A stretch of DNA of 64,000 nt from Octopus vulgaris (Eukaryota): the NCBI GenBank assembly GCA_951406725.2, contig OX597823.1, forward strand, positions 50,282,001 to 50,346,000, given 5' to 3'. Below, piece after piece: positions 9,300 to 57,300 of the stretch. Below the pieces are notes generated by a model. It was not told where the DNA came from. It did no database searches and was given only the letters and a program-made list of their open reading frames with translations. Within the stretch, counting starts at the first letter, position 1; every line of letters begins with the position of its first letter. A program made the translations under genes and the position numbers.

Positions 9300-11590
9300 T
9301 ATTAACAAAATTTTGTAGCTGCAATTATTGAAATATCTAAGAAAAGAATTCTGTTAATATATTTTGCACCAAACAGAAAACATTTTCGGCAGAATTTCCG
9401 AATAACTGATCCTCATAAGTTGGAACTTGTTCGTTTAGACAGAGATTTTTCAAATCTGTTTTTGTACCACGCAACTCGAAAGGATGAGCTTTTTCTAAAA
9501 AAGAAAAGAATTTGGAAACCCATGATTTTGGAAAGTTGTCCCCCATTTCCTTGTTGCCATCACGATGGATTATTCGATATTCTTTATTTATTTATTTATT
9601 CATTTTTGCACTTCAAAACGATGGAGTAAGCGTTTTTTCCAAACAAAAAAATATTTTAGAGACCCATGATTTTGGAACGTGTCTCCCCTCTTCTCCCCAC
9701 CTAATGCCTTCACGACAACCGTCATCATTCAAAAATTTTCCTCCTCATGTAATCCGCACTCTTAGAGCAAAAAGAAATTAGCCAATAAATTTCATAACAA
9801 CCCATCAACCGTTAATAATTATTTTCTAGCAAAAGTTATAGATGTGTTTTCAGTTTTTTTCCCATTCGACACAAAACGTAAATGAATTTAAGATAGTAGT
9901 GGAAGTATGTTTACTCTGTATTTGACCTAATTTCAGAAAAACTTGTATCTAAATTGTTCTTCAGTTATTTGAATAAAGAAGTGGGTACTGTTTTCAAATG
10001 AAGAAAAATCAATTTTTCCTGCTAATGAAATAGACATTCTCACAGGAGACTTTATACAAGTGACTTGCAATGGGTGTTGTTTATCCCATGTTTTTTTTTA
10101 TGTTTCACTAGAGATTATTTTTATATTTATTATTCCTTTAGGTAGGCAGTTGAACACTTGAAGATCTCTAAATATCGTTACAATAGAAGGATCTTTTCGG
10201 TTTGAACGGCAGTTTTTTAAAATAATTTCCACGTAACTAAACACTTTTAAACTTCGTATACTGGTAGAATGTGTTTATAAAACATCTTTTTCTCTTGGCT
10301 TTATTGAGAAAATTCTATAGTTTGTAAGATATTTGTAGTTGTTTTTCTTCAATTTCTGAAATTTCAACCAATCAATGACGTCTTTTGAGGTAAAAACATT
10401 TTGTGCCGTATGAATATGTCCCTCGTTTAAGAAACAGATTGGGTTTATTTACATTTGTGAAGAAAAAAAAGATATCCTTTCCCCCAGCCCTAACCCTAAC
10501 TAACCCTAACCCTAAAACAGATTGAAATGCAATAGATCGATACTAGGGTTATAATTATGGGTGGCAATTTCATATGATACCGCTAGAAAAACTGCCGTTC
10601 AAACCGAAAAGATCCCAATAGAGTATTTTTGCTCGTGATTTCGGAAAAAAAAAGGTGTTTCAGTAACGGGAAAATTTCCCCGCCACTGAAACATTCACTC
10701 GTGTCAAATTAAAAGGAGATTAAAGTATTTATTTGGTTCAGTAGTTGGAATGAAATGGCCACACATTGACGGAGCTAAGTACAACCATACTTATAAATTC
10801 AAAACTATCACAGTTAACGAAAGTACTGAAATTTAACCGTAGTGATTTAAGCAGTTTTTATAAGTGGTGATGTAATTTCCTTGTCCGAAAGTCGAAGCAA
10901 CGTGGAGTCAAGCAAAATTAGCGATTGAGTCAGGTACGACTTAATAAAGTTTTGTTCTTCTCTTAATTCATTTACTTTTTTTTATGTGATATAGAAAAAA
11001 AACGCAATAACATGAAAACATTATTTTGTTTGAAAAATGTTTAATTTGGGTTTTTTAAAAATTGAGGAGACGGATTACGAAATTTTTGTTGGCTAATTTC
11101 TTTTTTTGCTCTAAAAATGCGGACTACGTGTGTTTCAAGATGTAGAATATTATAACATTGAGGGAGAAAAAAATTGTAATGGTGATGACTGCCGTGAAGA
11201 CAGTGGTGAGGGTGAGAGAAGAGGAGCCATGTTCCAAAATCGAAAATTTCCAAACATTTTTTGTCTTTTTCAAAGGTTTAACCCCATCATTTTGAAGTGT
11301 GTAGAGCAAAATCCAGTTTGTAAAGTACGTTTGAAAGCGCCAGAGTTGGAGATGAGGTTCCAAAATCATAGATTTCCAAATTTTTTTTTAAGAAAACGAT
11401 CTTCCCCTGTTGTTTCGAAGTGCGTGGTGCAAAAAAGAAAAAAAAATTGCAAAGTCCCTGTGAAAACGGAGAAAATCCAGCATATGTGGATCAGCTATTC
11501 CGAAACTCCGCCAAATATTTTTTTATTAAAAGAATGAAGTCTGAAATTCAAGTTTGCAATCGTGATTCAAGGTTTTCACACATCTACAAT
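9300..11590. mobile_element. Old foldback-like element with ~500-600 bp diverged inverted arms
   Basis: 9370-9900 resembles the reverse complement of 10960-11520 (e.g. gaataactgatcc / ggatcagctattc); internal catgattttggaa subrepeats. Confidence 0.55.
10189..10615. mobile_element. MITE with ~29-bp TIRs and internal (CCCTAA)n
   Basis: ggatcttttcggtttgaacggcagttttt inverted at both ends; caataga repeated on both flanks; telomeric hexamers near 10490-10513. Confidence 0.85.
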
Positions 11591-12094
11591 TTATAATGGA
11601 CTCCGATAGGAATAATATTATTTATTGTATCAGAAGTATGTTTATTTTTCACATTTTTGCGTTGAGGGGCATATTTTCACTGGAGTTTAGCACCCAATAT
11701 TGGCTCATGTTGACCACCAGTCGATATCTTCCCATGGAACCCATTCCAAATTCCCCTACTCAATACAGCAATCCTTCTAACCTCCGGAGTATCTGTCACT
11801 TGAGCCCACCGCTCATTAATAAACAACCTAAATTATGCTACTCACTATATAATTATCCCCATCACCTTAGACTTCTACTTTACAATTCTTCAAATAATAG
11901 AATATATAGAAGCATCATTCTCCATCCTAGATAGTATTTATGGATCAGCATTTGAGATGAAAAATTTGTGATCGTCATCTTTTCCACATGTTATTAGCAG
12001 CGAAAAGGAACGAAGATCCTGACCTCAGCTGTGCTGTAAACTAGCCTGTACTCTCCAGCATATCTCTCTTGATTCAAATAATATTCCTCCAATT

Positions 12095-19497: not shown

Positions 19498-20310
19498 TGT
19501 TTGCCTTTTTTTTGTTTTGCTTTTATGTTTATCAAGAGTTAGTGAGAGGATTGCCTTTTATCGTTACAATGTTTTATGGTTTGCAGGAAGGTTAACGACC
19601 CAGGCACAGCTGGTTATAATTAGTGATCAATCTACTATATTGTTGTATCTCAGGAGGGTCATTGCACCAATAATAAACACATGCACTGGTTTTATTTCCT
19701 TTGTTTTTTATTATATTATACGTCAACAAGTTAAACATTTAACCAATTAGCAAATCGATTGTTTGGTTAATCGTTCGGTTAATTAATCAATAGGCTTCGT
19801 TGGTCATAGTTGAGAGTGCATGTCATTAGTGGAGTCGCGAAGGGCGACCAATGGACTTTGATGAACCGAGCTAGTTGAGTGATTGACCGAATGATTAACC
19901 AATCAATCGATTAACTTAAATGGTTAACTAGCTGACTAATAACAATATTAAGGATAATGATGATAATGATAACTATGATATCAATAATAATGACGATAAC
20001 AATGATGATGATGACGACGATGACAACAACAACAACAACAATAATAATCCTTTCGACTATAGGCACAAGGCCTTAAGTTTGAGGGAGGGGACTAATCGAT
20101 ATATCGACCTCAGTGTTTCACTGGTACTTAATTTATCAACTCCGAAAGGATGAAAGGCAAAGTCGACCTCGGCTAACGATTCTGCAAGACTCGCCACCTT
20201 AATAATAATAATAATAATAATAATAATGATGATTATAAATGCCCTGATGCAGTACCAGACAGTGGCTCTCATGGCTTCTGATCTTAACTGATTGGAAGTG
20301 CTATCATGTA

Positions 20311-20692
20311 TCCGCTGTGTGAAAAGTCTGGCTGCATACACGTTAGCATATGTCAGGTGCATACAATTGACAACACAGTTAATTAAGATTTATTCAGTGA
20401 GTTCTGTTCAACACATGTTTACATGTGGAATTCGCAGAATCATTATTAACTTTAGTTTTGGCCGATAAAGTTGAATTGAAAAACCCTACAACGAGGCATG
20501 AATTGCACGAAGCAGTCTTGCAGTCTTGGGAAGAGTTATCTGAGCGAAAAATTCGTGGATGTATTCAACATCAAATTCGTGTTCGGCGTCAAATAGTTGA
20601 TTGCCGTGGTGGTAACAGATTCGTGTAATAAAATTTGTGTTTATTTTTGTTTCATAATATATATTTTTTCGGATGCAGCCAGACTTTTCTGG
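20311..20692 (+). mobile_element. Tc1-like deletion derivative nested in another repeat
   Basis: Inverted repeats gaaaagtctggctgcat / atgcagccagacttttc; ORF 20425-20628 resembles a Tc1 transposase C-terminus (ELHEAVLQSWEEL...IVDCRGG). Confidence 0.7.
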
Positions 20693-21203
20693 TATAAAAG
20701 ATGGGCTACAGCAAATATTCTGCCCAATACCACAGATTTGCTAGTCAGTTGTTTGACCTTAACCAGTTGACAATGTCCCGATTTGTGTATCTCTGATCAT
20801 GAGCAGAAGTAGTGGGGTGGGGGGGGGGGCATCATGGCCGTGTGTTGAAAGGAATTCTTGGAGATTTGGATGATTCACCTTTGGAAACATGGGTGGTTCA
20901 TTCAACATCCTTAAACAATCCTTGTTCAGAGACCTTTTGAGCGGGATGGGCTACTCGACCAGAAGAAAATTCCAACTGGGCCCCACCTGCAAGGTCGTGC
21001 GATGTTTACCTTGATATGACATCACCATGTTGCGCACATATGGTTGTGATGCATGTGCCTGGTGTGCCCTTATCAGACGGGTAGTGATGGGTATACTGGG
21101 CTTTCGTATATTTTACCCCAGTGTCACTTTGATGGCATGCACTCAACAACAACAACAACAACAATAATAATAATAATAATAATAATGATAATAATACTTA
21201 TCA

Positions 21204-21572
21204 CCAAGCTAACATGGCAGTCCAAGAAAATAGGACGAATGCTGCTGTTGATTAGGTCCAAGAGACCATCGCCTCTAGCTAGCTATGTGACATGCAAACC
21301 TGTGTCCATTATAACCTTCGAACAGGGGAGGTCAACAGCTTCCCCTTGCTGGTTTGACAGCCACAGACTAGTTTCGGGGTAGTTGCCCCTTATCAATGTG
21401 GAGTAGCCGAACCCTGCTGGCGTCGCTGCTGATAATCTGTTCGAAGGTTTATTTACCTAAATTCAGTGAAAAACATCCACTGGTTTTCAAAAATAGAAAT
21501 ATTAATATTCTAAATCTTTCTAAAGGAGACTACGGCCGCCAAGCTAACAGGGCAGTCCAGGAAAATAGGACG
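21204..21572 (-). mobile_element. Retrozyme-like / Penelope pLTR-like unit with 34-bp terminal direct repeats and an internal hammerhead
   Basis: ccaagctaaca(t/g)ggcagtcca(a/g)gaaaataggacg at 21204 and 21539 (period 335 bp), with the hammerhead between. Confidence 0.55.
21361..21401 (-). ncRNA. Minimal type I hammerhead ribozyme (U3-A8 core variant)
   Basis: Minus strand reads CCACA-UUGAUAA-GGGG-CAACUA-CCCC-GAAA-CUAG-UC-UGUGG: stem I, core, stem II, GAAA, palindromic stem III, GUC cleavage site. Confidence 0.75.
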
Positions 21573-22027
21573 TTAATTTTTGCTCCTGTCACCGCTTCAT
21601 ATTCCTGTAGTGAAATAGGTGAAACAGAACCAGTGCATGCGTTTATTGTTGGCATAATGACTCTCTAGAGATACAAAAAAAAAATCTGTTTTAACGCATG
21701 AGTTCACATCAAAAATCTTGCAAACCAAATACAACCTCCCCCCCCCCCCCAATCTAAGTAGAAACTATAATGTTGTTTCCTTTTGTTGTCCATGTGTCTA
21801 CGTGTCTGTGTTTTTAGTGAATGACCATTAAATATCTATGAATTTCCTTTAGAATAATAATTTATATATGTCTTTTATTTCATCATTTATTAAAGGATTG
21901 TTATGGAGGCCATTCAGTGACTATATTTTACCGCATGAACGATCACATTGTGTACACAATTAGAATGTGATTTAATGGTAATTGTTACACTGCTGGTGAC
22001 AGTGAAGCAATCGATATTGAAATAGAC

Positions 22028-35274: not shown

Positions 35275-37719
35275 AGTAATATACTTACGCGCGCGCGCGC
35301 GTATACCCATCGATCAGCAACATACATATATATATAATTGAAAGTAAGAACAAAATACGAAACAAATTTGACGCATCGTAATAAACACGTTAACAGTAAT
35401 AGCGTACATGGACCGGTAATAATGTAATAATGTTTGTTGATGCTTTCCCAAAAGCTTTCCTCGCTATTATTTTACCTCCGTAAAACGGTAATGAAGATAA
35501 TTTGTTCAGTGATTTGCCATCGTTGACGATGACCCACATGGCGGCTGGAACCTTACGTAACACAGAAGTGAGTCAAACGGATTTGGCGTGTGTAAGGCCG
35601 TGATTAAACAGAAACGGTTATTACTCCTACATTAAAGTGAAAGATATTGAAACTATTGCTGACCTTAAAAGCAATGAAAAGTCGATATATTTAATATTCA
35701 GCAATGTGCAGTAGTACATAAATTTAGAGTGTCGTAAAAGAATTCTCTGTTTTAATTTTCTGAACTTTGATTCTAGGTAATAGGTGGGGGTTAGAAAAAA
35801 AAACGGTATATAGCGGTTAATAGTTTATGAATAATCAAACGCTCTCCTTTTCTAATGGCTCTTACGATTTTGTTATAAAGGCTTTTGTATCCCAATAGGG
35901 ATGGCTTAGTGCAATAAATCTCTCTTCTATAAACATTTCAGATCGTTCATTACGAATGGTTCATCAATATTCATTATTGCAACGAAATTTTCGTATGCTT
36001 TTAAATCTGTAGTTCATGTAAGAACACAGGAGTAGAGTTAACGTTTGAAGGTGATATGAAGCTGCAGTGAATTTCCTTTAATATCGCAAAGGACTCTATG
36101 AACTGGTTGAATTTACACACAATTTCTTTCTGTAAATTATACCAAGTCATGAACGAGTACGACATCTGTACAGAGCGTTATCCATTATTTCGTGTCGATA
36201 GTCTTCATATATTTCGCAAACATAGATTCTGTCGTTGTAAGTGGAATAAAATGACCAATAATCATATGAAACGGCAGGTTTGTCGTTAATCATGCTTCAA
36301 CTACTTATAATAAATTTTCTGTTCTAACAGCCTACTATAAAAACGTTGGTGTGTACACCAGTGTCGTGGAGTTATCTCAAGTCAGCTCTGGTTAAACACA
36401 TCGACAGCACGTAGGTAGCCAGTCAAATGACTAGATTTGACCTTATTGGTCTAGTGTTCAAGATATAATTCGCCGCCACCAAGCTAAAGGACCGTGCTAC
36501 ATATACCGACTTTGTTAATCGTTTGATGTATAATATTTCACACTCTCTCTCTCTCTATGGTCCTGTTTATTTCTGTATACCTATTTCTTTATTACCCACA
36601 AGGGGCTAAACACAGAGGAGATAAACAAGGACAGACAGACGGATTAAGTCGATTATATCGACCCCAGTGCGTAACTGGTACTTAATTTATCGACCCCGAA
36701 AGGATGAAAGGCAAAGTCGACCTCGGCGGAATTTGAACTCAGAACGTAACGACAGGCGAAATACCGCTGAGCTTATTTCTGTATACCAGTTGTTGGTTCG
36801 CTTCAGTTCATTCTTAAATGAACTAACATATTATCAAAGACATTCCAGTCAATTTTTAAACGTTCAATTAAAGGGTGATATACAGAATGGCGTACTCAAT
36901 AAAATCTTAATTAATTGGAATGTTCTCTTAGTTGGAGAAAGTAAAGAAAAACTCTCTGAAAAAAGGCGAGGTAATTTCAAGAAGGGTAAGATAATAATAT
37001 CTCCAACCGAGACGTTACAACCGTATCTGATTGTTCAAGAGCTTCAATTTTGTATATGTACATATATTTACTCGACTGCTGACCTTTACTAATGGTTTTT
37101 CCCATTGTTTTGATGCATCATTTTCTAGCATTTATAAAACTGTCGGTATTTTTGACGACACGGGTTTGCTAGCTAATTTCATAATTCACATGCTTAGGAA
37201 AATGAAATTAGATTATTGTTTGCCGGAAAGGAATAACTCAACTATGGATATGTTTAGGCCAAGTGAACCGCATCAGCACCACATAGTCTAATCAACCCAA
37301 AATGCCACGAGATTCTTTGCTTAAGAATGTTGAATATTATTTTCTTCCAGGGAATGCTTTTTATGTCTGTAATGATGAAAATGTTATGCAATTAGGTAGG
37401 CAATAGACCTTGGTGATGTTAATAATATATATGTCAAATAACTTGCAAACCAAAACTAAGGGAATTGAATCGTTCTTAAGCTGAATTTTCTTCATCATGA
37501 AAGCGAGTTAAATAAGAGTCTATATACATGGTTGTTTAAGCTACTAGAAATAGCAGTGAATCTTCCTCAAATTACCCCGTACCATAGTTGCTCCCAGACG
37601 CAGAAACGTAGCACACTGGTCGAACGCCAGGTGGTGTTATGTGAACCACAAAATAATTTTATTTTGGAGCATTAACAGAGTCGGTAGATCATCAGGCAGA
37701 ATGCCCCGAAGGTCTACTT

Positions 37720-38502
37720 CCACCAGTCCTGGTCTTTCCGACATCTCTCTCTGCGCAGTGAATCACTCCGCCATTAAAACCTACAGACAAATCTCTCTTA
37801 CCCAGGACTTTTCACTCCATAGTGATTTCAAGTGGATCTTCGTCATTGCGGACCTGCCCTATCCTATTCTTGGTGCTGATTTCTTACATCCCTATTCTCT
37901 CCTTGTGGGCATTAGAGAACGCTGATTCATTGATGACACCACTTCACTCGCCGTCTCCGGAAAGGATTCTTCTGTCCCTGTTGTGAGCCCTTCTTTCTTC
38001 GTGGCTGCTTCGAGTGACTCCTACCACCAGTTACTCACTTCGTTACCAGAGTTGACTGATTTGTCATTTCATCCGTCGAATCCAGCCCATTCTACGAGAC
38101 ATTTCATTACGGCTAAGGGTCTTCCAGTTTTTTCCCGACCGCGCCGTTTGTCTCTAGAGAAACTCCAGATCGCCCGGGCTGAATTGGAGCACATGTTCCA
38201 CCTGGGCCTTATTCGTCCCTCCACGAGCCTGTGGGCAACACATTTATACATGGCCAGGAAGAATGAAGCTGATTTTCGACCGGATGGAGATTTTAGACGT
38301 CTTAACACTGTTACTATCGCTGATCACTGTCCCCTACCAAATGTGCAGGATTTTTCGTCTGCTCTGCACGGCTGTAAGATTTTTTTCTAACATCGATTTG
38401 GTATGCGCATACCATAAAATCCCTGTCAACCCCGACTTTCCAAAGACAGCCATCATCACACCTTTTGGAGTGTTTGAATTCTTGTCTATACCGTTTGGTT
38501 TT
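37720..38502 (+). pseudogene. Ty3/Gypsy pol fragment (protease end to reverse transcriptase)
   Basis: PILGADFL, PRRLS, DFRRLN, PLPNVQD, IDLVCAYHKIP, KTAIITPFGVFEF; stops and frameshift. Confidence 0.9.
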
Positions 38503-39269
38503 GCCATTCTTGTGGCTTATCATTACCATATGTTCAGATCATCTTGAAATGATATAAATTGTTGGCCTGTGACTAATATTCAAATAGGGTGAAGTTTATT
38601 TGCTGATGTACTGCGGTGCAGCTCATATGAAAGTAAATTAAAAATACGAATGAAAAGCAGCACTAGTAATGTAAACATTATCGGTCGCACATACACAGTG
38701 TATGTGTCTTGTTTATACGACTTCACTCCCTCGGACAAATCATTGTGCTGAACCCTTTAATATTTATTAGCGGGACCTGTGAATATTTCACGAAATCCAT
38801 GGTAAATCTATTGGGTTATTTCTGAAAACTTTATCCAAAAAATCTGAAGGCGTAGCCTGTGTTGTGTCTGTATGGCAAGATAGTCGCTCATCTGCTACTC
38901 ATTAAAAAGTGAAAGAAATTGGAATACGATGATTGCTTAATGCACTTTATATATACACTTTATAATCTTTATGCACAATTTTATAGACTTAATGCACAGC
39001 ACCCATAAAATAAATATTCACTCTTATTTCCCCATTTCCCCCATAAACATAAAAAAAAAATTCCGTACATATGATACAACCTTTAGTTAAATTGCATATA
39101 TTTGCTACGTAAATAAGCGTGGATATTTCACAGAATTGCACTTATGCGCATGCATTAAATGATGGGTGATATAAAAAAAACTTAGTCCAATTTAAAAAAA
39201 CAAACACTTTTTACTATCCAATCACCACCGCCACCTCCATCACCTCCATCTCTACCACCCCTCTCCATT

Positions 39270-40484: not shown

Positions 40485-41773
40485 CGAGGGGCGTTCAATA
40501 AGTAATGCCCCTGACCCACTTCCCATAGCAGTAGAGCAACGAAACTTGGTACAGTTATTAGTCTTTTTCTACATAGGAACCACCCAGAGTTACGCATTTC
40601 TCCCATTGTTTGATGCAGCTCTGGAGACCGTTTTTGTAGAAGACCCCAGCTTGATCCTCCAACCTGAACGTGACTTCAGAAATCAAGGCTGCATCATCTG
40701 GGAAACGCTTTCCTTTCAAAAACAACTTCATGACTGGGAAGAGGTGAAAATCGGAGGGTGCAAGGTCAGGAAAGTAGGGGATGGGGGAGGAGTTCATAGC
40801 CATACGCCTGTGCTTCTGATCTGGCGACAAGCGAGTTGTGAACCGGAGCGTTGTCCTGCAGGAGGAGGATGCCTTTGCTGATCTTGCCCCGCCTCTTGAT
40901 TTTGATAACTTCTCTTAATTTCCTCAAAAGTGAAGCATAATAGGCTCCTGCAATTGTGGTACCCTTTGCCAAGAAATCTGTCATCACTACTCCGTCCTGG
41001 TCCCAGAAGACTGTGAGCATGACCTTGCCAGCGGAGGGCTGCACCCTTGCCTTCTTTGGATGGGGTGAGTCACGGTGCTTCCATTGCATTGACTGGGCTT
41101 TGGTTTCTGGATCATCGTGATGGACCCAGGTTTCATCCTGTGTAATCAGTCTTTTGAAAAATTTTGACTCATCTTCTTGGCACATCTCCAAATTCACCCT
41201 CGAGCACTCGACGCATTCTTGCTTCTGGAAAGGCGTGAGCAACCTGGGAATCCATCTGGCAGACACCTTTTGCATATGCAAATGGTCATGAATGATAGTT
41301 TCCACAGACCCGGTACTAATCTTGACCTCATGGGCTATTTGGTGAATAATTATGCGTCGATCTTCCAAAATGGCAGCCTCAACTTGACGGACAGATGCCT
41401 TATCAATGGCAGAAAGGGCGACCAGATCTGGGAGCTGTTTCCACAGAGTTCCGACCATGTTTGAATTCACGATGTCAGCGTTTTACAAGGTCATATGATG
41501 GGGCATCATCACCATAAGTTACTTTCATGTCATCAAAAGTCTCCCGTGGTGTGCGTCCTTTCAAATAAAAAAACCGGATCACTGCTCGACACTCAACAGG
41601 CTCCATTTCACACTTGACTCGGTTCAAACACCTGTAAATCAGAAACCACAATTAATTCAGAGCTGTAATTTGCCACTTACTCTATAGAGATATAGATGAT
41701 TGCACATGCAAAATTTCAGCTAGATCAAACAACTGCAAGTGGGTCAGAGGCATTACTTATTGAACGTCCCTCG
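40485..41773 (-). mobile_element. Full-length mariner transposon
   Basis: TIRs cgaggggcgttcaataagtaatgcc / ggcattacttattgaacgtccctcg, TA TSD, 1289 bp. Confidence 0.95.
40558..41606 (-). pseudogene. Mariner DD34D transposase with stop and frameshifts
   Basis: MEPVECRAVIRF start; WIPRLLT, ITQDETWVHH, LLLQDNAPVH, PDLAPSDFHLF motifs split across frames. Confidence 0.92.
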
Positions 41774-42827: not shown

Positions 42828-42932
42828 ATGGATCTTAAAAGAAAAGCTTCCGAATCGGTGATTGTTCCGTTTAAGAAACCAAGAAATGAAATCGTTCCTA
42901 TGCATAGGAAGAATCTATCTGTAGTACAATCG
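42828..42932 (+). CDS. SNRNP40: SNRNP40 exon 1 (coding part)
   Basis: ATG at 42828; MDLKRKASESVIVPFKKPRNEIVPMHRKNLSVVQS; donor gtgaga at 42933, phase 0. Confidence 0.85.
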
Positions 42933-43185
42933 GTGAGATGATGTTTGTGATTCTTGTGTCTGTTTTTGTCTGTTGTTAACCAGTTTGGTTTATTGGAATA
43001 TATTTTTGTTCAGTTATTTAAATGTGTTCGTATTTTCGTTATTTACAAAGTTAAACTTTAAATCATATAAAAAAAAAGAGACAAACGAACAAATTAGATA
43101 GTCAAAAACTAATTGATATTTAGAATATTAAGTCAATATGTATACATAATACGAACCACACGTGTCCAAACTAATATATGTATGC

Positions 43186-43241
<56 letters not shown>

Positions 43242-46200
43242 GCATGTATATATATTCTGAAATGTACAGTATTACACATATCCATCACGGATAATATACC
43301 CACTCTATTGACAGATATACAAATACATCTTTTTCTTGACGACTATTCACATATATATATTCACGAACGAAAGTAACCAGACACTTCTGTACACAACCTT
43401 GGTATTGGTTATTTTGTTATTAACTGAATTATTCGCTTGTAGTTTACTTTCCTTGCTCTGATATGGAGGTAATAAAGAACAATAGTGACCCAAATCTACT
43501 ATAATATCAATAATTATTAAGGGAAAAATATCCCAGGGGAGTCTTCTGCATACGGCACCGGCATATAGATCTCTCTAATGTAATTACACTGAATCGAAAA
43601 ACTGGTTAGCTGTTTTTTTTTTTTTTTTTCATGCAGTTAGCAGGCTAGACTTCTGTTTGGTGTTGTTTAAAAGTTAAATATAAGCAAGAATGATAGCTCT
43701 AATTACATCAGCTTGTTGCAATTTTCGGAAAATAAAGCTTTGCAGATGGGAACTAATTACTGAAAATCATCGGCCATGTGTTCGGTCTTCTTTTACTCCA
43801 ACTCACTCAGTGAAACATATTCTTTGCAAATGTGAACAGTTAAAAGTGACCCCTAGCTTATTTTTAGATTTTGAACGCTATTAGAGTAGATACTGTCTAT
43901 TAACTATACGGATTATCTCAGGTAATCGTTCCGGCTTACTATATCATATTTGTGAGATCTTGCCAGATCTACTCAAAATATAATTAAATAATGGCAGAAT
44001 CGCTAGCACGCCGGGCAAAATGCTTGGCGGCATTTCGTCTGTCGTTACGTTCTGAATTCAAATTCTGCAGAAACCAACTTTGCCTTTCTTCCTTTCGAGG
44101 GCAATAAAATAAGTACCTGTTGAACAATGGGACCAATGTAAATGAACTTACCTCCTTCCCTGAAATTCCTGTCTTTGTGCCAAAAACCCAAAAGGTGCTA
44201 TGATTCTTTTTATGATTTCAGTTAGTGCTGTATATTCTTTTGAGTTTATTATCGTAATGTGTAGAATCGTTTAGCTCCAGTGAAATTGTAAAAAAAAAAA
44301 ACGAACTATTACCTATGCCAAAAGAATAAAAGGTAAATTTAGTAATTTTTATTATTGAGTAGTTCTAGAAAAGGGTGATACTTGTAACTTTTGAAAAGCC
44401 TTCCAGACTGGTAAGTTCGAAATAGTTGATGTTCTGTGAATTTCTCTAAGTGAAATTGCAACATCAAACTTTGCATTAGAGTGCTCTATGACGGAATGAG
44501 ATGACTGGATGAGGATATGTGGTTACTTGCAATTTGGTTTGGCTGACTGGACATTGAACCAGTTTTGGCAACTGTATTTTTTGGCACTTTTTGGCTAACA
44601 CATACATCCACATGTACACTTACAGAGGGAGTGAGACATTACAGTTTATTTATAACATAATTGATTTAAACATTTCCCTCTCCTCATGTGCATAAAGGGA
44701 AATATAGTCACCCGCATAAACAGCGAGAGAGAACATGAGAAACATTAAAACATCTGATGTCAAATAAATCAGGTTGTTAAAATGGCTGCACCAAAAGGTC
44801 TTATATCTGATGTACTATATGGTACATCAAAGCATCTAATATCTGTATACATATACATGCATTTCAATTCTTGTTGAAATCACCCCCAACAACTGTGTAC
44901 TATCTTCATCTTTCCACAAACTCACTGCTTATAAACCCATTAGGGATTGAAGTAAACTAGATAAACCAGTTTGGATATTTTAGCACTTTTTTTAGGTAAC
45001 TTGATCAAACATTAAATTACTGATGTATTAAAGTGTTTCATTTCATTGCTATAGCATACTATAAGACATATCTATATATCTCTGTTAGATGTTTGGTAAC
45101 ATTCCAGGTTACCATTTCAAGCCATGCCAACTCATAAAGGCTGGTTTCCATGGTGTATGAATTCCTCACCTGGAGAGAACACCAGTCTGTCGCAGGATTA
45201 CTCATTTTTGCCAGCTGAGTGGACTGGAGCTATGTGAAATGAAGTGTTTTGCTCAAAAGCACAACATGTCACCTGGTCCAGGAATCCAAACCACAATCTA
45301 ATGATCATGAGTCCGACACTCTAACCACTAATCCATGTGCCTCCACTGCTGTAATTTGTGGATGTTATGATTAGATGTTCTTATTTAACTTAGGGCAATT
45401 GGAAATAAGATCTGATTATACACTGATAGCAAAGATTACTAACTAAAGACATAGATTTAGTTATGCCTAATCACTGCTAATGCTGAACAATATTCTTTAA
45501 AATGAATAATGGAATAAATATATGTTGAATATATTTATGCTAGCATGGCTGTGTGGCAAGAATTTTCCTTCTCAACCTTATGGTCTCTGGTTCAGTCCCT
45601 CTGTGTGGCACCTTGGGCAAATGTCTTCTACTACTGCTCCAGGCTAGTCAAAGTCTTGGGGAGTAGATTTGTTAGAGGAAACTGTGGAAGCCTATCATTT
45701 GTAGTGTGCTTGTGTGTGTTTGTATATATGTGTTGTTATTACCTCTATGCTTTAAATTCATGTAATACTTGTAAATGAATGTCATCATTATGCAGGCAAG
45801 TGGTGCCCTTCATTCCCAGTCTCCTGTGAAAACATAGACATCAGGAAATATTACCTTACTTGGTGTGTGTTGAAGTCAAGAAGGGCTTTAGCCTGTAAAA
45901 AAAAAAATCCTCCTTAACAAATTCCATCCTACCCATGCAAGCATGGAAAAGTGGACATTAAATGATGATGATATGTTACATGTTATATCTATTTTTTCAG
46001 GGAATTCCTCGAACTTCAAATCTTGAAGCTCCGATAATGCTTCTAACTGGTCATGAAGGTGATATTTTTACTGGAAAATTTTCTCCTGATGGTAGATTTT
46101 TGGCAACTTCTGGATTTGATCGAATGATTTGTAAGTTAATTTTTTTTTTAATATGTTTCTTTTCTGCCAAGCATTGGTTAGAATAGTGTTGGTTGTAGTG

Positions 46201-49200
46201 ATGGAGGCTGGAATGTACATCTTCATTGAATTTTGCACTATATTCCTGTTAAATTTTTACTTATTGCTCACTTCATCACCCTCTCTCCTATCCACAGTAC
46301 CATATGTAAAGAGGAATGGCATTTAATCTATCCATATTTCCTCACTCTTCTTTGCTTCCACCTTTACCCTTTTAACACACTTCCTCTCTTCCATCATGAT
46401 GCCTGTGTAACAAGGGACAGCATCAGACCTTTCCATATTTAGTTTGCTCTACTATCACTCTTTCCATGTGACTCTACATTGACATCTACCATTCCCACCA
46501 TTGCTTATCTCTGTTGCTAATCATTATTTGTTAGGGTGTTGCACTCATGATTGTGAAATCATGGTTTTGATACCCAGACCAGGCACTTCATCTCATGTTG
46601 TTCTGTGTTCACTTCAACATCTGTTATGTAGCACATTGTGCACTTGTACAGGCAATGTTGATCTGATGGAGGCAGTGAGCTAACGTACAGCACAAACATT
46701 TGATCACTATAAACCAATCATCTGTACAAGTTGTTCAACAAGAAATTGTAGAACCATCTTACTTGGACTTGAGAGACATGTTTCTTAACATCACCCTTTT
46801 TTTTCTTGTTATCCCATCATGTAACTTATCCTCTTTTGCTATTCACTTCTCTCCTTTCTCTACTTATAATTCTTTTCCTCTACCATACTCTATATATTTT
46901 CACCACTGTTGCCCTTTTAGCTATCGTTCTCTCTTATATATAGTTTCCCAGTTATGTTTGCCTTGGAAACATTGAGAGGACGTCTTGCAACAAACAAAGC
47001 AACCCCTCTGGTACTGGTGCCTTGATAAAATGCCTTCAGTACATTCTGTAAAGTGGTTGGTGTTCAGGAGGATATCCACTTTCTGCATCCATGCCAAAAA
47101 TGATATCTATGAATGAGATATGGTCCTCGAGCCTGTCAATTTGGACCTTATCTTTTCTAGTTTCTGAAGCATAATAAAGTTCCCTTAACCCACTAGCCTT
47201 TAAACTGGCCATATCTGGCTTAAATATTCTACCTATTTTATGTTTAGACTAGTCAGATCCTGCCTCTCACAATTAACATACAATAGATTTACAAGCTGGT
47301 AGAATCACTAGCACACTGGGTGAAATGCTTAGCGGTATTTTGAACGCTCTGAGTTTAGCGGTATTTGTCTGCGGTATTTAGCGGTATTTTGAACGCTGTG
47401 AGTTCAAACTCCTCTGGTGTCGACTTTGCTTTTCATTCTTTTGGGGTCGATTAAATAAGTACCAGTTACACACTGAGGTCGATGTAATCAACTCAATCCC
47501 TTTGTCTGTCTTTGTCCCCTCTTTGTTTAGACCCCTGTGGGTAATAAAGAAATAAATGTCATTCTAAAAATGAACATTCACATTATTGAGATCTTGAAGC
47601 TATTAGATAATGCATGATTAATTCAGAACAATCTAAATAAATAAGTATTATATTTGACAGAGTAATCTGAATGCTAAAAGGTTAAAAATACATATTTTTA
47701 ACCTCAAAATGACCATGGGATGAACTCAAAAACTTTTATACAAAAACCACTGCACGATTTCATGTTTTCATCATATTCTAATTCTTGTCCTCTTATTCTA
47801 GTTGTGATTAAATATCTATAAGGAAATTTATAATTTTCTTCATTGTAGTTTTTTGGAATGTTTATGGAGAGTGTGATAACCTTGGTGTTCTGCGTGGCCA
47901 TACTGGAGCAGTTATGGAGGTACATTTTTCTACAGATGGCAGGTGAGTAAAATTCTGTTTATTTCTCTAAGTAAATCATGGAATTACCTTGTACTTGATT
48001 TGCTATTATAAAATGTGTGACAGCCAGAGTTGGCTTCATAAAGATTCAGTTGAATTTACACATATCCATTTCTCCATTTTTTATACCCTTCCATGAAATA
48101 CCTGCTCTGTGAACTGTTCTTTGTAGAAACCTTGTCATGAGGTAATTCTTAAATAAACAAAGTATCCAACAAATGGTGAGCTTAGTAAAGTATGGGTTCT
48201 GTTGGTGGCTGTTTTTGTATATCACTTGAAAAACTCATGATTGTTTCATTGCTGTTTTAACATCCCCTTTTTCATGCTTTGCATGGGTTGAATGGAATTT
48301 GTTGAGGAAGACTTTTTAAGGCTGGATACCCTTCCTGTCACCAACCCTCACCTGTTTCCAAGTAAAGTAATATTTCACCATGGCCAGACATGTTTTCATG
48401 GATGATTGGAAACAAATGACACTGTTTGTATGGTGGTGACACATACATCTATCACGTGATGTCAAGCCAAGGAGAAAGTAACATACCTGCACACACACAT
48501 GACAAGCTTCTTTCAAATTTCTATCAACCAAATTCACTCATGAAGGATTTGGTCAGCCTGTGGCTATAGTAGAAGACATTTGCCCAAGGTACCATACAAT
48601 GGAACTGAATCTGGAACCAGCTGAACACTGGGGTTAATTTAATCCACTTAGCTCCTTTCCCTCAAAATTGCTGGACTTGTGTCAAAATTTGAAACCAGTA
48701 TTATATTAAGCTTATAAATCTGCTTTTGTTTTTGCAGCCAGCTGTTTACAGCATCAACAGATAAGAACCTTGCCATTTGGGATGTAGAAGCTGGTGCGCG
48801 TATCAAGAAACTGAAAGGGCATCAAGACTTTGTAAATTCCTGCTGCCCTGCACGCCGTGGACCACAGTTAATATGTAGTGGAGCAGATGATGGCAACTAT
48901 CAAGGTTTGTCTCTCTCTTTCTCTCTCTCAGCCAATGCAAAAATTTGTTACAATGGAGACATTACTGATCTTTAAACTTTTCATCTCTCTGTGTAAAGCC
49001 CTCTTCCTTCATAGACTTTGTAGTCTTACAAGCTAATGGTGACCAAACTAGTGCTGGTGACATGACATAAAGCACCCTGTACATGCTGTGAAGTGGTTGG
49101 CATCAGAAATGGCATCCAGCTATAGAAACCATGCCAAAGCAAACACTGAAACACAATGTGGTCATTTTACCCTGTCGAATCATCCGATCCATGCCAGTAT

Positions 49201-49410
49201 GAACACGGGTGTTAAATAATGATGATAGGCCCAGCCATGGCTCTGTGGTAAGAAGCTTGCTTTCCAACCACATGGTTCTGGGTTCAGTCCCACTGTGTGG
49301 CACCTTGGGCAAATGTTTTCTACTATAGCCGCCTTGCACATTTCAAAGCCTTCTGAGTGGACTTTGTAGACGAAATCTGAAAGAAGCCTGTTATGTTGTG
49401 TATGTGTGTA

Positions 49411-49444
<34 letters not shown>

Positions 49445-52400
49445 TATACGTGTGTGTGTGTGTGTCTTTGTGTCATCACCACATGACAACCAGTGTTGGT
49501 GTGTTTACATCCCTGTAACTTAGTTGTTCAGCAAAAGAGACCAATAGAATAAGTATCAGGCTTTAAAAATGAAAAAAATTAAAGAAGATAAATAAGGGAG
49601 TCAATTCATTTGACTGAAAATTCTTCAAAGCAGTGCCCCAGCATGACCACAGTCTAATGACTGAAACATGTAAAAGGTGAAAAAAAGATAGTACCTCACC
49701 ATCAATTGAATTTATTGCCCAGTCGCTTTCATCTAATCCAAACAAGCATTAAATACAGAAACCAATATCTGTAACTCCTAATCTATGTTGGCTTAGTTGA
49801 GCTAATTATTAGATATATCCACTTATTTGACACCACTGCTAATCTCTAGTCACCATCAGAACTGCTGGATGTAACGAAATAAACTGGATTTAGCAGAGTT
49901 GCTGGAGCATAAGACAAAATCTGTTGCAGTATTTATTCTAGTCCTCTGTGCAAGAATTGACACTCTGCATAGAGCATGGAGCATGATGGCCTGGTTCTCT
50001 GACAGTTACGATGACAAATGTTCCATTTGATTTAGTCAATAGAACAACCCGCTCATGGAATTAATGTGCAGGTGGCTGACAGCCCCACAAACACGCATAA
50101 ATTAGTTCTCAGGGTGATTCAACGTGACACAGAATGTGACAAGGCTGGCCTTTTGAATTGCAGGTACAGCTCACTTTTGCCAACTGAGTGAACTGGAGCA
50201 ACGTGAAATAAAGTTTTGTTCAAGACAAAAATGTGCTGATAAGAGTCAAACTCATGTCCAAGAGTCAAATACCTTAACCACCAAACCATGTGCCTTCACA
50301 TCATGGAATATCCAGCATTCTAGTCTGATTGGTGATGTGAATGCTTTCAGATATTTGGGTACTTAGGGTCTGTTTGAGTAGTGTTAACTGGAGATATTCA
50401 GCAAAGCATTCTGTTCTTTTGTTTCAATGTGCCTTTGAAGGGTTTAGTTGATTTAATGAACTCCAGGACTTATTTTAAATTTGGTATTTATTCTATTGGT
50501 TCTCTTTTGGTGAACCACTAAATTACAGGAATGTGAACAAATCAACATATACAAACACAAAAATGCACACACTTAAACATACATATATAAACATACATAT
50601 ACACATGTAAAAAGTACTCAATATATTCAGTTAAGTGGTTGGCATTAGGAAGGGCATCCAGCTGTAGAAACCATGCCAAAACAGACAATGGAGCCTGGAG
50701 TGGCCCCTGACTGTACCAGCTCCTGTAAAATTACCCAACCCATGCTAGTATGGAAACAGTCATTAAATGATGATGATAACATAACACAAGCACACACAGA
50801 CATAACATTCAAACATGGATTTTCTGTCTAACAGATTCACTCACAAGTTATTGATCAGTCTGGGGCTATAATAGAAGACACTTGCTCAAGGTACCATGCA
50901 GTGGAACTGAACCTGAAACCACATGACAGCAAAAAAGCCTCTTAACCATGCAGCCATGATTAATTAGAAACTTTTTTTTAACATCATCAATACTAACTAC
51001 TGAACAGATCGAGCTGTGATAATTACAATTACTGATGTTAAGTTTATTTTAATGAAATCTCTATGTTGCTTGACATGCTGGTAAATTCTGAGTAATGTGA
51101 AACAGAGGTGGGAAACTTTTTAGTGCAGGGGGCAAAAATTTACAAAGAAAAAGGTCCACAGGCGGAATGTAAGTTCTAACTCTTATATCTGTGTAGATTT
51201 TGTATATATCTATGTATAATTCGATATACATTAATAAAGATAAGTTTAACACATTAAATTAATGCGTAACATCTTCATTAACACCACCATTGAATTTAGC
51301 CCATTTATATTACTTATGAGGTATTCTATATTTTTCAGCTAGAGTGTAGTTGGGTCTGAATGGGGTGGTACAAACCTAGCAATGTGTTTTATAGTGAAAA
51401 CAAAATTTCCATTCAAATGGCAATTACCGGACGAGTTTCTGTTCTTTTACAAAGAAAAAGGTCCACAACTTATGTTACAAAAAGGCATATGAATATTGTT
51501 TAAATTTTATAACTGAAAAACTTACTATATTTTGTACATACAAGTATATCAGCCAGTGGGCAAAATAAAATGGGCTTGTGGGTGCAATCGCGCCTGCGGG
51601 CGGGGGTTTCCTCACCCCTGCTGTAAAACAAAAGAAAAAAAAAACAGGGTGGTCATGGCTGGAAAACCATTTGATCATAGGTTTCTGCTCTCTAGACTAG
51701 CCTGGTGGCTAAACTAAAATTGCTTTCTGTGTATCTTTTATTCTTTTCACTTGTTTCAGCTATCAGACGGTGACCATGCTGGAGCACTGCCTTGAAAGAG
51801 TTTAGTTGCACAAATCAACCACAGTACTTTTTTTGTTTTTAAATTTGATACTTGTTCTGTTGGTTCTCTTTTGCCAAACTGCTAAGTTACTGGGATATAA
51901 ACAAACCAGCACTGGTTATCAAGTAGTGTCATAGGGACAAACACAAACACACACATATATACACACAACAAACTTCTTTTAGTTCTGTTTACCAAATCCA
52001 CTCATAAAGCTTTGGTTGGCTCAAGGCTATAGGTGGCACTTACCTGAGGTGTCATACAGTGGGACTGAACTTGAACCATGTTGTTGGGGGAGCAGACTCC
52101 TTACTACATAGCCACACTGTTAATTATTTTATTGTAAAATATTGGGTTACTCTGTTAAGCACATTTCACAAACGCGGAGTGTTGTTGATTTGGCTCTATG
52201 GAAGGTAGCCAACTCTTCTAGGGTTTGAATTCAAAATCCAGACTTAAGAAATGAGCAAAAAAAAGTAAACACTGCAAGGATTTTAGTTTGGCACTTGGTT
52301 ACTAATTTCGACATAAAGAGTGAAGGATTCTTTCACTGGTTTCAGTCATTTGACTGCGGCCATGCTGGAGCACCACCTTAAGAGGTTTTTAGTTGAAGAA

Positions 52401-54351
52401 ATCAACCCCAGGACTTATTCTTTGTAAGCCTAGTACTTATCCTCATGGTCTCTTTTGCCAAACTGCTAGGTTACGGGGACATAAACATACCAGCATCACT
52501 TGTCAAGTGATAGTGATGGTGGTGGGGAACACAAATAAAGACACACACACATGCTAACATATACAATGGGCTTCTTTCAATTTCTGCCTACCAAATCCAC
52601 TTACAAGGTCTTGGTTGGCCCAAGGCTATAGTGAAAGACACTTGCTCAAAATGCCCCTCGGTGGGACTGAACCTTGAACTATGTGGTTGGGAAGCAAGCT
52701 TCTTACCAGACAGTAATGCCTGCACCTAGTATTTTGAAATGTTATGTTCATGAATTTGTTTTGTAAGATTCCTGATGTGAAATCGTGTATTGAAACAAAT
52801 ATTGTTATATAAAGTTGTCCCAAAAGTTCGTAGAAAGTCTTGGAAAATAATGGTCTTTATTTTGAGGAATAATTTTTGTTGTTTTTGTTAGTACTTAGCA
52901 AGTAAAAATTCAATTTTCGCAAGTGTTTACGAACTTTTGGGACAACCTAATATTTCAGGATGGTCGGTTTTTTTTTCTTGCCATATGCACTTTGTATTTG
53001 TTTTCCATTCATTTATTATTGTTCTTATTTTATCTTATGTCCATTTCACACATTAGTGACCTTTTCAGCTACTCTTTCATCCACGTGTTTCCTCCTGTTC
53101 TGTTTAGTCCATCCTGCAATACTTTGAAATGCATTTTCATTAAAGGTACAAAAATAAAATATCTGATTCCACTGTTATTCCTGTTTCAGTTGTGGGATTC
53201 TCGGAAGAGAGGAGCTGTGCAGACTTTTCAGAATGTTTATCAAGTTACTTCTGTCACATTTAGTGACACTGCTGAACAAATCATTTCTGGGGGTATTGAC
53301 AACGACATCAAAGTTTGGGATTTAAGGAAGAATGATATCTTATATCGTTTAAGAGGTCACACAGATACACCGACAGGCTTGGAGTTAAGTCCTGATGGCT
53401 CTTACTTATTATCCAATGGCATGGATGGTACTGGTAAGTAATGTCCTTTTATTTTTAACATAGATGATATGAAAATTGTGCAGTATTTTGTTGAAGCTAT
53501 GTTTTTGTTGCTGTGCAGTGTGTCTTCGTGATAATTTTTAGTTTAGGTTATTCTGTCAAATGTAATGCTTAACATAAATCCTTGAGTATAATACGCAGGG
53601 TATTTTTAGGGGGCTGTACTTCTGAAAAACCTAAACCATGCGTATAATACGCACCCCTTCTCTAATTTGAGTCAAGGAGGTCTATATAACGTCCTTGGTT
53701 TGTAAAAATGCATACGGTAACATACTTTATTATTGTATATATAACATAATGCAAATGTGTAGCTTTTTTGTGCAGAAAATAAAGAAATAACAGTAATAAC
53801 GTTTAATAAATGTTGTTTATTGCAAGTTATGGATGATTCTTTTATGACTTCATTGCTTTCAGGCTTAGCTTAAGGTATTTTTGCACCCGACATCACAAAA
53901 TGCGTCTGAATAAACATTGCTGTTCTGTCTGTGTGTCTTCTAGGATCTCGGGAATCCTCCATCTGATTGCGCTCAAATTTGATATGTAGATACTGACGGT
54001 ATCAGGGCGTTTATAAGTCTTGAAAAAATTACAAAAATCGATTCCATGTGAGAATGCGATTGATAAAGCCGTGGTAACATGCATTTGTACGTGCAAGTAC
54101 ATCAGCTGTTGTGATGTACTTACTGGTATGTTAAACTCTTCAGTTGCATATTTGTGTGAATAAAATCGTTTTTCTTTGGAATAGAAAAAAAGTCTATCTT
54201 TATTTCTTCTTTTGCTGGTGTCTCAAATTTAGGTTAAATCAGTGTTTCTCAAAGGGGAGGCCTATGGGATGGTCGGACAAGTTGTTTTGAGAAAATTTGG
54301 TTTAAATGTTTGACAACTCAGCACTGTCCATTGGACAGGGACGTTTTGCTC

Positions 54352-54387
<36 letters not shown>

Positions 54388-57300
54388 TCAACATCCACAA
54401 GTAATTACACACACACTGTAATTACTTGTGGGTGTTGACACTATTCCACTTGAGCAAAATGGCAAGTGAAGTTTATAAAGTCTTACCTGCATTATGACTG
54501 GTCACTATGCACTTTCAGTGCATTGGGGAATAAAGAATTCCTTACTTATAAAATAGGTATGGGTTGACGATGAGACGAGCATGTGACCACAAAACTTTGC
54601 CTCGGATACATTACCCCCTTCCCTGTTTCCAACCAATGTATGGAAAAATGGTCGTTAAACAAATCCTGCTTTTCCACCTCACTTGCTGGTAAGATGGCAA
54701 TGATCTTAGTTGGGGATTGAATTATCCATTACACTTTGTGTAACAGAATTAAACTTCAGTATAACTTGCATAACAAGTAAAGCAATAGCTTTCTGTATGT
54801 TTTTCTGAATTTTAAAATGTAGATCTTTTGGTTTTACATGTAAAGTGATAAAATAATTTTGTTTTATTTTTAGTGTCTCAAAGTCAGAAGGATAGAGAAC
54901 TACTTTAGTCATATGACTTAACGCTTTTGTTAGCCTATATATCATAGGCAGAGTGGTAATGTGATATGGGAGACAACTCCTTGTATTTACAACTTTTAAA
55001 TGATGTCAAACCCTGTACTGTCATTTTTAAAACAGCTGTATCTCATCTTGTCTCACCGACCCAGTAATCCATCATTATACTATATCTCATGAAATATATG
55101 AAGCATAGGTGTTTCATAAATATATTTTTCAATTTAGATCTTATTTTAGTATATAATTGGTAACCTTAGATTGAACAATAACTTTGTTTAGATGTTTGAA
55201 ATTTTGATTTTGTAGCTTATATACAATGCCAAAGTTGAAACTAAGTGGAAAAAACGAATCCATTTTACTGTTTTCGTGATCTCACTTTTAATCTCATTTG
55301 ATTTTTTTTTTTCATACTGCCTTTGTAAACCTACACAAAAATACTTTAAAAAATATGAGCTTATTCTTTTATTTTGATAAATTATAAATACATTACTTAA
55401 ATATTTGATATTTGGATTGGAATGTATTTGATTGGAGTTGAGTGATTTCTGGCTAAGTTTCATTACACTTCATTACCACTATTTTCTCTCCTCTCTTTTC
55501 CAGCTGGGATAGCCATGTATCTCCTCCACAGGAATACACCTGTTTCTGTCCTCCTATCATACTTCCATCAGACACAAAGCCACCTCCCTAAATACTCACT
55601 CCATGTTTCATTTGAGGGTTCTTAGTCTTGCTAGTTACTTGGCGACTTCATTGGTGTCAGAAGCACCTAGTACACTTTGTAATGTGGTCGGCATTAGGAA
55701 GGACATCCAGTCATAGAAACTATGCCAAAGCAGACAGAGCTGGACATTGTCCTTGCTCAACATTCCTAACAAACCATCTAACCCTTGCCAGCATGGGAAA
55801 TGGACATTAAATGGTGTTGCCTCTTAATATTCCCATCAAAAACTTCAAGGTTCATATCACATTGTTTGCTTAACTATTTCTCTAAATGAAGTACTAGTTT
55901 ACAGATTTTCCTTACAAAGCTGATTACAAAAGTGATTAAGTAATTTTTCCTCTTATTTTCATTCCTGTCCTATTCTACTTGTTTTATGTTTAAACTGGCC
56001 AAATCTGGCCTCTTACACTTACCCTACAATATCATTCTAAAAATATACAATCACATCAGGTCTACAAGATAATACATGGTTAATACAAAACTACATAAAT
56101 AAGCATTACACTTGATAGGGTAATCTGAACGCTAAAGGTTTAAATAACATTAAATCATGGGCTAAAAATTGGTATGTGCTATTTATTAATTACTTCTTAT
56201 AGTTAATTTATTTTAATTTAGGTGTTTTCAGTTTTTCTTTCCTTTTTTCCAGTGCGAATTTGGGATGTACGACCATTTGCGCCTCAGGAGCGATGTCTGA
56301 AATTGTTTCAGGGACATCAACATAGCTTTGAGAAAGTAAGATGTTTATACTTCCTTATTGATACAGTTTGTCAATTTGCATGCTTCATGGTCATTCATGA
56401 CCACTGTACATACATTTGCTATTAAAGACTATTGTATGGTTGTAGAAGCAATTAGTGCCAACTACTTCTACTCAATCAGTCTCTCAACTGAAACTTTTAC
56501 CTGGTTTGGATAACCCTGACATTAGGCAAATATGCCATACTTATACTATTTGTGGCTTCAAAATATGGAAACCTCCCTAACTCAACAAGTTAAACTGACA
56601 AGCAGGAAAGACATAGTTATCATTGCTATTAAGTACCCATAGGTGCAGGCACAGCTGTGTGTTAAGAAGTTTGCTTCCCAACCACATGGTTCCAGGTTCA
56701 ATCGCATTGCATGGCACCTTGGGCAAGTGTCTTCTTCTATAGCCTCAGGCCAACCAAAGCCTTGTGAGTGGATTTGATAGACGGAAACTGAAAGAAGTCT
56801 GTTGTATATGGGTGTGTGTGTGTTTGCATCCCCATCACTGCTTGACAGCTGGTGTTGGTGTGTTTATGTCCCTGTAAATTAGCGGTTCAGCAAAAGTGAC
56901 CAATATAATAAGTCCTGGGGTTGATTTGTTTGACTAAAACCCTTCAAGGCAGTGCTCCAGCATGGCCGCAATCAAATGATTGGAACAAATAAAAAGATAG
57001 ATAGCTATGTTTGAGCAACAGAATTTTTGGCATGGATTTAGTTGATCACATATTTTGAAACAAACGTATCCAGCACTCTGGTTTTAATATACATTTCTGT
57101 TAGCACATTTGTTTCTAATTCCTTAGTAATTCAGCCTTAAATTTTGATTGGCTAAAATTAAAAGCCTGTGTAAAATGCATTATCTTTATTAGATGTGGAA
57201 TACCCTACACTTAATGAGGATTTACATGTTTATTAGGTCAGCCATTTTTTCTATACAATTTCAAATTCAACTTTCTGTTTCAATGTGAATCATCTTCTCA

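Follow-up and report, generated by a model that had tools for sequence, protein, structure and literature searches.

What kind of mobile sequence is the hammerhead-bearing, 369-bp insert that lies within a 64-kb stretch of Octopus vulgaris DNA (the whole of which is called the window here), and from what kind of RNA was it copied? The first-pass annotation had put the locus forward as a candidate cephalopod retrozyme, namely slightly more than one monomer reverse-transcribed from a circular RNA of about 335 nt. The cephalopod host is confirmed by an 82-aa exon in the window, whose identity is 100% with an Octopus vulgaris protein and 99% with O. bimaculoides SNRNP40. On the sequence evidence, the insert is one diverged copy out of a repeat family that is present many times in the Octopus genome and carries a type I hammerhead motif. 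Its identity as a non-autonomous unit mobilised by Penelope enzymes, from either of two RNA templates, appears probable to us, while the narrower reading, that it is a likely dead copy of a 335-nt non-LTR retrozyme-type unit moved by Penelope-like enzymes with a likely circular RNA as template, is proposed only tentatively.

The insert is non-coding and consists of one 335-nt unit (GC 44.5%) and a 34-nt terminal overlap (Table 1). The direct repeat of 34 bp that had been noticed at its ends is indeed present, 21204-21237 and 21539-21572 being identical at 32/34 positions with a spacing of 335; other repeats of at least 32/34 identity at 150-500 bp spacing amount to only three pairs in the window, located at 24.9-25.3 kb among dispersed-repeat copies. 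The 2/34 difference between the two terminal copies is uninformative on age (95% interval 0.7-19.7%). Even when the unit is read around the circle, the longest ATG-started ORFs measure 8 aa in ribozyme sense and 64 aa on the opposite strand, and a Pfam search of the stop-to-stop frames across 19.4-23.7 kb returned no family in 28 of 29 frames and one DUF below the cutoff in the other, in agreement with the earlier statement that no credible ORF exists here.

Table 1. Coordinates of the insert, its internal elements and its immediate flanks in the window
Feature	Position	Strand	Remarks
Whole insertion	21204..21572	-	Ribozyme sense runs 21572 to 21204; based on repeat comparison and family coverage
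3' terminal 34-nt repeat	21204..21237	-	Likely tail of Penelope type, and likely region in which reverse transcription begins
34-nt repeat at the 5' end, extending beyond one unit	21539..21572	-	Two positions unlike the 3' copy
Type I hammerhead motif	21361..21401	-	Helix I 21401-21397/21365-21361; helix II 21389-21386/21379-21376; palindromic helix III 21372-21367
Predicted self-cleavage site after GUC	21366/21365	-	Motif-based; 162 nt to the insert 3' end, 207 nt to the 5' end
Inner rod extending helix I	21331..21433	-	21331-21339 with 21425-21433; 21347-21360 with 21402-21418; pairing better in the family than here
13-bp inverted-repeat arm, base of the ribozyme-carrying rod	21313..21325		Pair probabilities 0.76-1.0
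13-bp inverted-repeat second arm	21437..21449		21448 unlike most related contigs
(AAC)n(AAT)n microsatellite	21144..21196	+	Ends 7 nt from the insert 3' end; likely insertion target; ATT repeats on the ribozyme strand
Left neighbour, separate very high-copy repeat	20950..21135		Summed depth 0.7-8 million in three DNA runs
Right neighbour, separate repeat breaking off at the unit end	21573..21735		Loose ends at 21572: 51 in X2, 44 in X10

The hammerhead motif comprises a helix I of 5 bp, a helix II of 4 bp, a short and palindromic helix III and the core UUGAUAA...GAAA, in which the pair U3-A8 replaces C3-G8. It was the sole match of a descriptor scan in the 64-kb window, the same descriptor finding matches in 2 of 60 shuffled windows, and the Rfam search returned 0 matches at the gathering score and no hammerhead among 7 weak matches. 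Neither a second hammerhead nor a tandem array occurs within the 64 kb and, since the insert has one ribozyme, this copy would be unable to release a monomer or a circle. The motif was also compared with the minimal Penelope hammerhead (min-HHR), from which it departs by its 4-bp helix II and by having no extra base.

Folded as a circle, the monomer is structured, as the first-pass annotation had supposed, with a z of -3.3 in the ribozyme sense (0/100 shuffles as low) and of -2.5 on the opposite strand, which is also better than all 100 shuffles; both strands thus fold well, so folding gives no choice of strand. In the folded monomer, helix II is paired with near certainty, helix I with a probability of about 0.5 and helix III with a probability of 0.0, and helix III forms in silico between two copies and none within one molecule. 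In this model, the two-copy helix III fits the dimeric mode that has been described for animal hammerheads (PMC4209133; PMC7761336). The ribozyme-competent fold of 21310-21452 lies within 0.1 kcal/mol of the minimum and places the ribozyme at the tip of a rod, at the base of which the inverted repeat pairs. This 13-bp inverted repeat, which had been described as perfect and enclosing the ribozyme, is real in the window copy and was matched by 0/2000 shuffles of the monomer but by 5/191 real 335-nt tiles of the window; however, position 21448 carries another letter in 78-93% of the contig depth, so the outer part of the repeat is copy-specific and the family shares a core of 11 bp, within a stem that is far longer in the family than had been stated.

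Variation among the related contigs bears on the history of this stem. Among the nine variants listed for 21313-21449, beside which 86 further rows exist, six add a Watson-Crick pair (21335, 21357, 21360, 21415, 21418 and 21433), one of these being a sixth pair of helix I, while two break a pair (21362 and 21448) and one is neutral. By chance, 33 of the 411 possible single changes (8%) add a pair, which gives a P of about 2e-5 for sites that are not independent, and the pattern is one of restored pairing, not covariation. Because six of the nine listed variants add pairs to the ribozyme-carrying stem, the window copy looks decayed and the ancestor looks to have been well paired with a 6-bp helix I; as modelled, the decay looks to have followed insertion. 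Separately, the variant at 21362, which accounts for 23%, 37% and 88% of the depth in X1, X2 and X10, respectively, breaks a helix I pair unless 21400 compensates.

Words of the unit are present in 20 of the 24 listed sequencing runs, under six organism labels, and contig coverage was read from four of them, namely three DNA runs (organisms A, B and E) and X19, which we guess to be an RNA run, no run with words of the unit being on record as RNA. All bins across 21198-21538 stand at 192-12,811 times the unique-flank depth in 3/3 DNA runs and, although summed contig depth is not copy number, such values exclude a single-copy sequence, the finding that the first-pass annotation had named as fatal to its proposal; the unit instead belongs to a dispersed family seen under three organism labels. 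In X1, the bin over the 3' repeat (21198-21228) has about 1,700 times the unique-flank depth and the bin over the 5' repeat (21539-21569) 74 times; the depth over the latter amounts to only about 12-16% of the preceding bin, which does not point to tandem arrays in abundance. Between the window copy and the longest related pieces, about 12-19% of positions differ, none of the contigs listed spans the locus and no empty-site allele was seen among them, and exact patterns of the unit had no match in metagenome, viral or prokaryote contigs. Pieces in X19 cover 21216-21502 and 21296-21509, with a ratio of unit depth to left-repeat depth of 0.007, versus 0.055-0.16 in the DNA runs; as this run may contain DNA and short circles are easily lost, it is neutral on expression.

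The depth also changes along the unit, with a 4- to 12-fold fall across 21335-21357, immediately 3' of the predicted cut, in each of the three DNA runs; in these runs, depth 3' of the cut is 6-9 times that on its 5' side. Such a step near the cut would be expected of copies that derive from cleaved RNA, and also of 5' truncation, a subfamily sharing the 3' part only, or mapping loss on a diverged reference.

The ends of other copies are informative on where copying began. Three contigs with other flanks start at 21204, 21204 and 21207 (X2 records 26 and 27, and X10 record 9), and X10 record 9 covers 21207-21535 with 301 and 265 other letters at its sides, that is, one unit without overshoot and without the 5' copy of the repeat. 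In X10, three contigs have a break at 21535-21536, at a distance of one unit from the 3' end; two X10 contigs besides record 9 go from 21536 back to 21230 or 21298, head to tail, with 7 and 26 filler letters. The ends in common at 21204-21207 and 21535-21536 point to a fixed start of reverse transcription, not to random circular permutation, and the circularly permuted insertions that the first-pass annotation had envisaged were not seen among the informative long contigs. The tandem arrays envisaged with them were likewise not seen: the window has none and, in short-read contigs that break at tandem repeats, the 15 joints listed (93 more exist) include no exact head-to-tail joint, only the two imperfect go-back joints of X10. 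In many long pieces the match ends at 21495-21510 and unlike letters follow, and these stops are not predicted by a 335-nt unit with one fixed 5' end.

On its ribozyme strand the insert is followed at the 3' flank by an ATT-type run, and only 0.6% of the window is as near as 10 nt to a run of this type. No target duplication of at least 4 bp was found at the insert. The repeat that adjoins the 5' end has partial matches at 19640-19698 and 52751-52806, and a 20-nt motif from the sequence that usually precedes it has no match in the window with up to 3 errors allowed; the insert therefore does not interrupt that repeat cleanly.

In the wider setting, the unit lies about 21 kb upstream of the first coding exon of SNRNP40 (U5 snRNP 40 kDa protein), whose eight coding exons at 42828-62302 (+) match Octopus proteins. 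A short dispersed repeat, probably a SINE, occupies 20033-20176 and has 22 further matches in the window, including close copies at 24.8-25.3 kb. Nearby, 20321-20337 and 20673-20689 form a perfect 17-bp inverted repeat 335 nt apart, which resembles the ends of a miniature DNA transposon and whose equal spacing seems a coincidence, and 19753-19810 and 19855-19912 form an imperfect 58-nt inverted repeat (78%) around a 44-nt spacer. Mariner-type transposase remnants lie at 40766-41482 (-) (Pfam Transposase_1, E 4.7e-23) and at 60935-61306 (-), the latter with a weak HTH match only. The 122-aa frame at 11566-11934 (+), which gave no Pfam match under the code used, resembles a mitochondrial membrane-protein gene in the wrong code and is a possible nuclear mitochondrial DNA copy. 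The broken frames at 37560-38547 (+), two of which gave no Pfam match at E 0.01, we take to resemble a Gypsy-type protease/RT remnant.

How the insert came to be one unit plus 34 nt can be explained in more than one way. It might be the 5'-truncated 3' end (pseudo-LTR) of an autonomous Penelope-like element, whose 34-bp tail was doubled on resolution of an intermediate, with no independent 335-nt unit; we regard this as unlikely but as an explanation to be reckoned with. The distance from the ribozyme start to the 3' end, 183-217 nt, overlaps the upper part of the range of 87-210 nt that 13 complete Hydra-clade elements span, a range taken from complete Hydra-clade rows only and leaving out incomplete rows, Penelope-18_HMa (motif at the 5' end) and the Chlamys and PLE-X rows. 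The 6- to 9-fold depth excess 3' of the cut is as expected from 5' truncation, many pieces diverge at 21495-21510, the U3-A8 pair was first reported in a Penelope family (PMC4209133), and some Penelope ribozymes likewise combine a 4-bp helix II and a helix III that is short and palindromic. However, the 29 frames across 19.4-23.7 kb show no RT or GIY-YIG match, random truncation would not favour the three X10 breaks lying one unit from the 3' end, and the ribozyme, which is without the long helix II and extra nucleotide of minimal Penelope hammerheads, is carried by a long rod that is conserved. The hammerhead of the published octopus Hydra element is, moreover, a different one. The many copies, size, GC content and ribozyme type uphold the retrozyme candidacy first proposed; an autonomous Penelope 3' end explains the DNA about equally. 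A quite different origin, in which the 34-bp repeat arose as a long duplication of the target site, or as a local duplication on both sides of a hammerhead fragment unrelated to it, was rejected as highly improbable: although target duplications of animal retrozymes, when present, are reported to exceed 4 bp (PMC7229834), the repeat here stands at about 1,700 times the unique depth and, in long contigs with different flanks, runs on collinearly into the rest of the unit, and it is therefore family sequence.

If the unit is an independent one, its template has to be considered. As the insert is unbroken across the predicted cut, its template was an RNA longer than a linear monomer bounded by two cuts: a circle closed by religation or a head-to-tail transcript left uncut, which leave indistinguishable DNA. 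In the latter case, a 335-nt non-autonomous unit would have been copied from the linear transcript of a small tandem locus, with a weak or idle ribozyme and no circle, a possibility that we rate as rather unlikely. The insert DNA produced would be identical, helix III does not pair within the monomer, non-autonomous Penelope elements with head-to-tail insertions are described in PMC8557442, and in the one Penelope studied in vitro, as reported in PMC11167929, cleavage is dispensable for insertion and uncleaved RNA is the main substrate. Against it, exact one-unit copies would arise more easily from a circle, the family keeps the ribozyme stem paired, the 4- to 12-fold depth drop at 21335-21357 hints at cleavage, and circles were found in 3/3 animals tested according to PMC7229834. 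Penelope insertions are reported to carry a tail of 30-40 bp at either end and to be biased to microsatellites (PMC8557442), and Penelope reverse transcription, once the endonuclease has cut at ATT, to start at two internal sites, which mark the bounds of the tail (PMC11167929). Since the 34-nt overlap has the length of such a tail, the overlap alone is no proof of a circle; what stands of the first-pass account is an insert of slightly more than one monomer, here one unit plus 34 nt. The circular template is favoured only slightly over the linear tandem one, as the exact one-unit copies and the preserved ribozyme stem fit it.

Based on this analysis, we propose the following course for the circle-templated retrozyme-type unit. 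A head-to-tail master locus elsewhere would be transcribed, and two hammerheads, probably acting as a dimer via the palindromic helix III, would cut the transcript and free the 335-nt monomer, which a host ligase would close. The Penelope RT/endonuclease would then nick an ATT-rich target, and reverse transcription would begin at an internal position of the RNA that lies 162 nt 3' of the cut, and copy one round, here with 34 nt more, the length of a Penelope tail. A more speculative extension, which we consider unlikely as it stands, is that the family records three products of the retrozyme cycle in DNA, namely cut-ended short copies, which would stem from cleaved linear RNA, exact one-unit copies, and one-unit-plus-34 copies, which would stem from a circle read beyond its start; that the 34-nt overlap would in that scheme correspond to the interval between the two internal Penelope RT start sites is held with equally low confidence. 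If true, this three-product reading would be direct genomic evidence of Penelope enzymes copying retrozyme circles, and the mobilising partner could be traced through its tail. In PMC7229834 and bioRxiv 10.64898/2026.07.22.740005, as far as their accessible text goes, the mobilising enzyme of animal retrozymes and the circle as template have so far been inferred, not shown, and the tail-length overlap and common ends allow partner and template to be tested from one genome. A host function of the window copy, which is single and decayed, is unlikely.

The retrozyme class is already known in molluscs, and hammerheads have already been noted in the giant squid, with 235 Rfam hits (PMC6962438), and in an octopus Hydra element (PMC8557442). 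Full-text literature, as far as it was accessible, yielded no description of an octopus retrozyme, which may already stand in paper supplements or repeat catalogues. The present family is likely a new octopus member of the known non-LTR retrozyme and non-autonomous Penelope class, and would extend retrozymes to cephalopods. O. vulgaris itself is host to 190 Penelope-like families, which make up 6.83% of the genome and 31 of which were recently active (PMC13282606).

Compared with Penelope elements (PMC8557442; PMC11167929), the octopus unit is alike, in the features reported there, in the length of its 34-nt extension, in a hammerhead in sense near the 3' end and in fixed 3' ends, as well as in the ATT-type run at the 3' flank and the absence of a duplication of at least 4 bp, with the orientation assumed from the ribozyme. 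It is unlike them in having no RT-endonuclease ORF at the locus and in an extension at both ends of only 301 nt, and it has no match to the published octopus Hydra-1 hammerhead in the part of PMC8557442 that is available. Six short exact motifs of the unit do not occur in the accessible portion of its supplement, where line breaks or divergence could mask matches, and no parent Penelope was seen in the sequences covered. The Cercyon hammerheads of Schistosoma are reported to have U3-A8, to be mostly single motifs and to be expected to act as dimers through a palindromic helix III (PMC4209133); the octopus motif shares with them the compensated U3-A8 core pair and the palindromic helix III. It differs from the Schistosoma minimal motifs, whose helix II is described as having 7-8 bp and being preceded by an unpaired base (PMC4209133), in its 4-bp helix II with no such base and in the 6-bp helix I of the octopus family. 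A plant LTR retrozyme was considered as well and does not describe the locus, which has a type I motif, a 34-bp repeat and no duplication; plant LTR retrozymes are described with a type III hammerhead, LTRs of 300-400 bp and a 4-bp target duplication (PMC5680766).

Solo retrozyme monomers derived from Penelope pLTRs, as surveyed in bioRxiv 10.64898/2026.07.22.740005, are alike in length and dispersal. In the available text of that survey, which covers vertebrates, three insects and a coral and includes no mollusc, vertebrate retrozymes are reported to derive from pLTRs on the ground of pLTR homology, dispersed monomers are seen as offspring unable to transpose, and in vitro cleavage is given for only 1/9 Xenopus retrozyme dimers. 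An active retrozyme is defined there by two consecutive hammerhead units, whereas the octopus locus has one.

There is a close likeness, too, with the metazoan non-LTR retrozymes, which are described as 150-450 bp long with a GC content below 50% (PMC7229834). The octopus unit has a type I motif in sequence and fold, 335 nt, a GC content of 44.5%, no protein and many copies, and so agrees with them in hammerhead type, GC content, lack of an ORF and copy number, and also in folding upon itself in a way that still allows the ribozyme to form; its length compares with 350-390 for mussel and 220-245 for coral retrozymes in the same source. It differs from them in being a single unit plus 34 nt with one ribozyme, a U3-A8 core and no target-site duplication. 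By analogy with the coral, mussel and axolotl non-LTR retrozymes as presented in PMC7229834, the octopus unit likely works, or worked in its intact relatives, in the same way.
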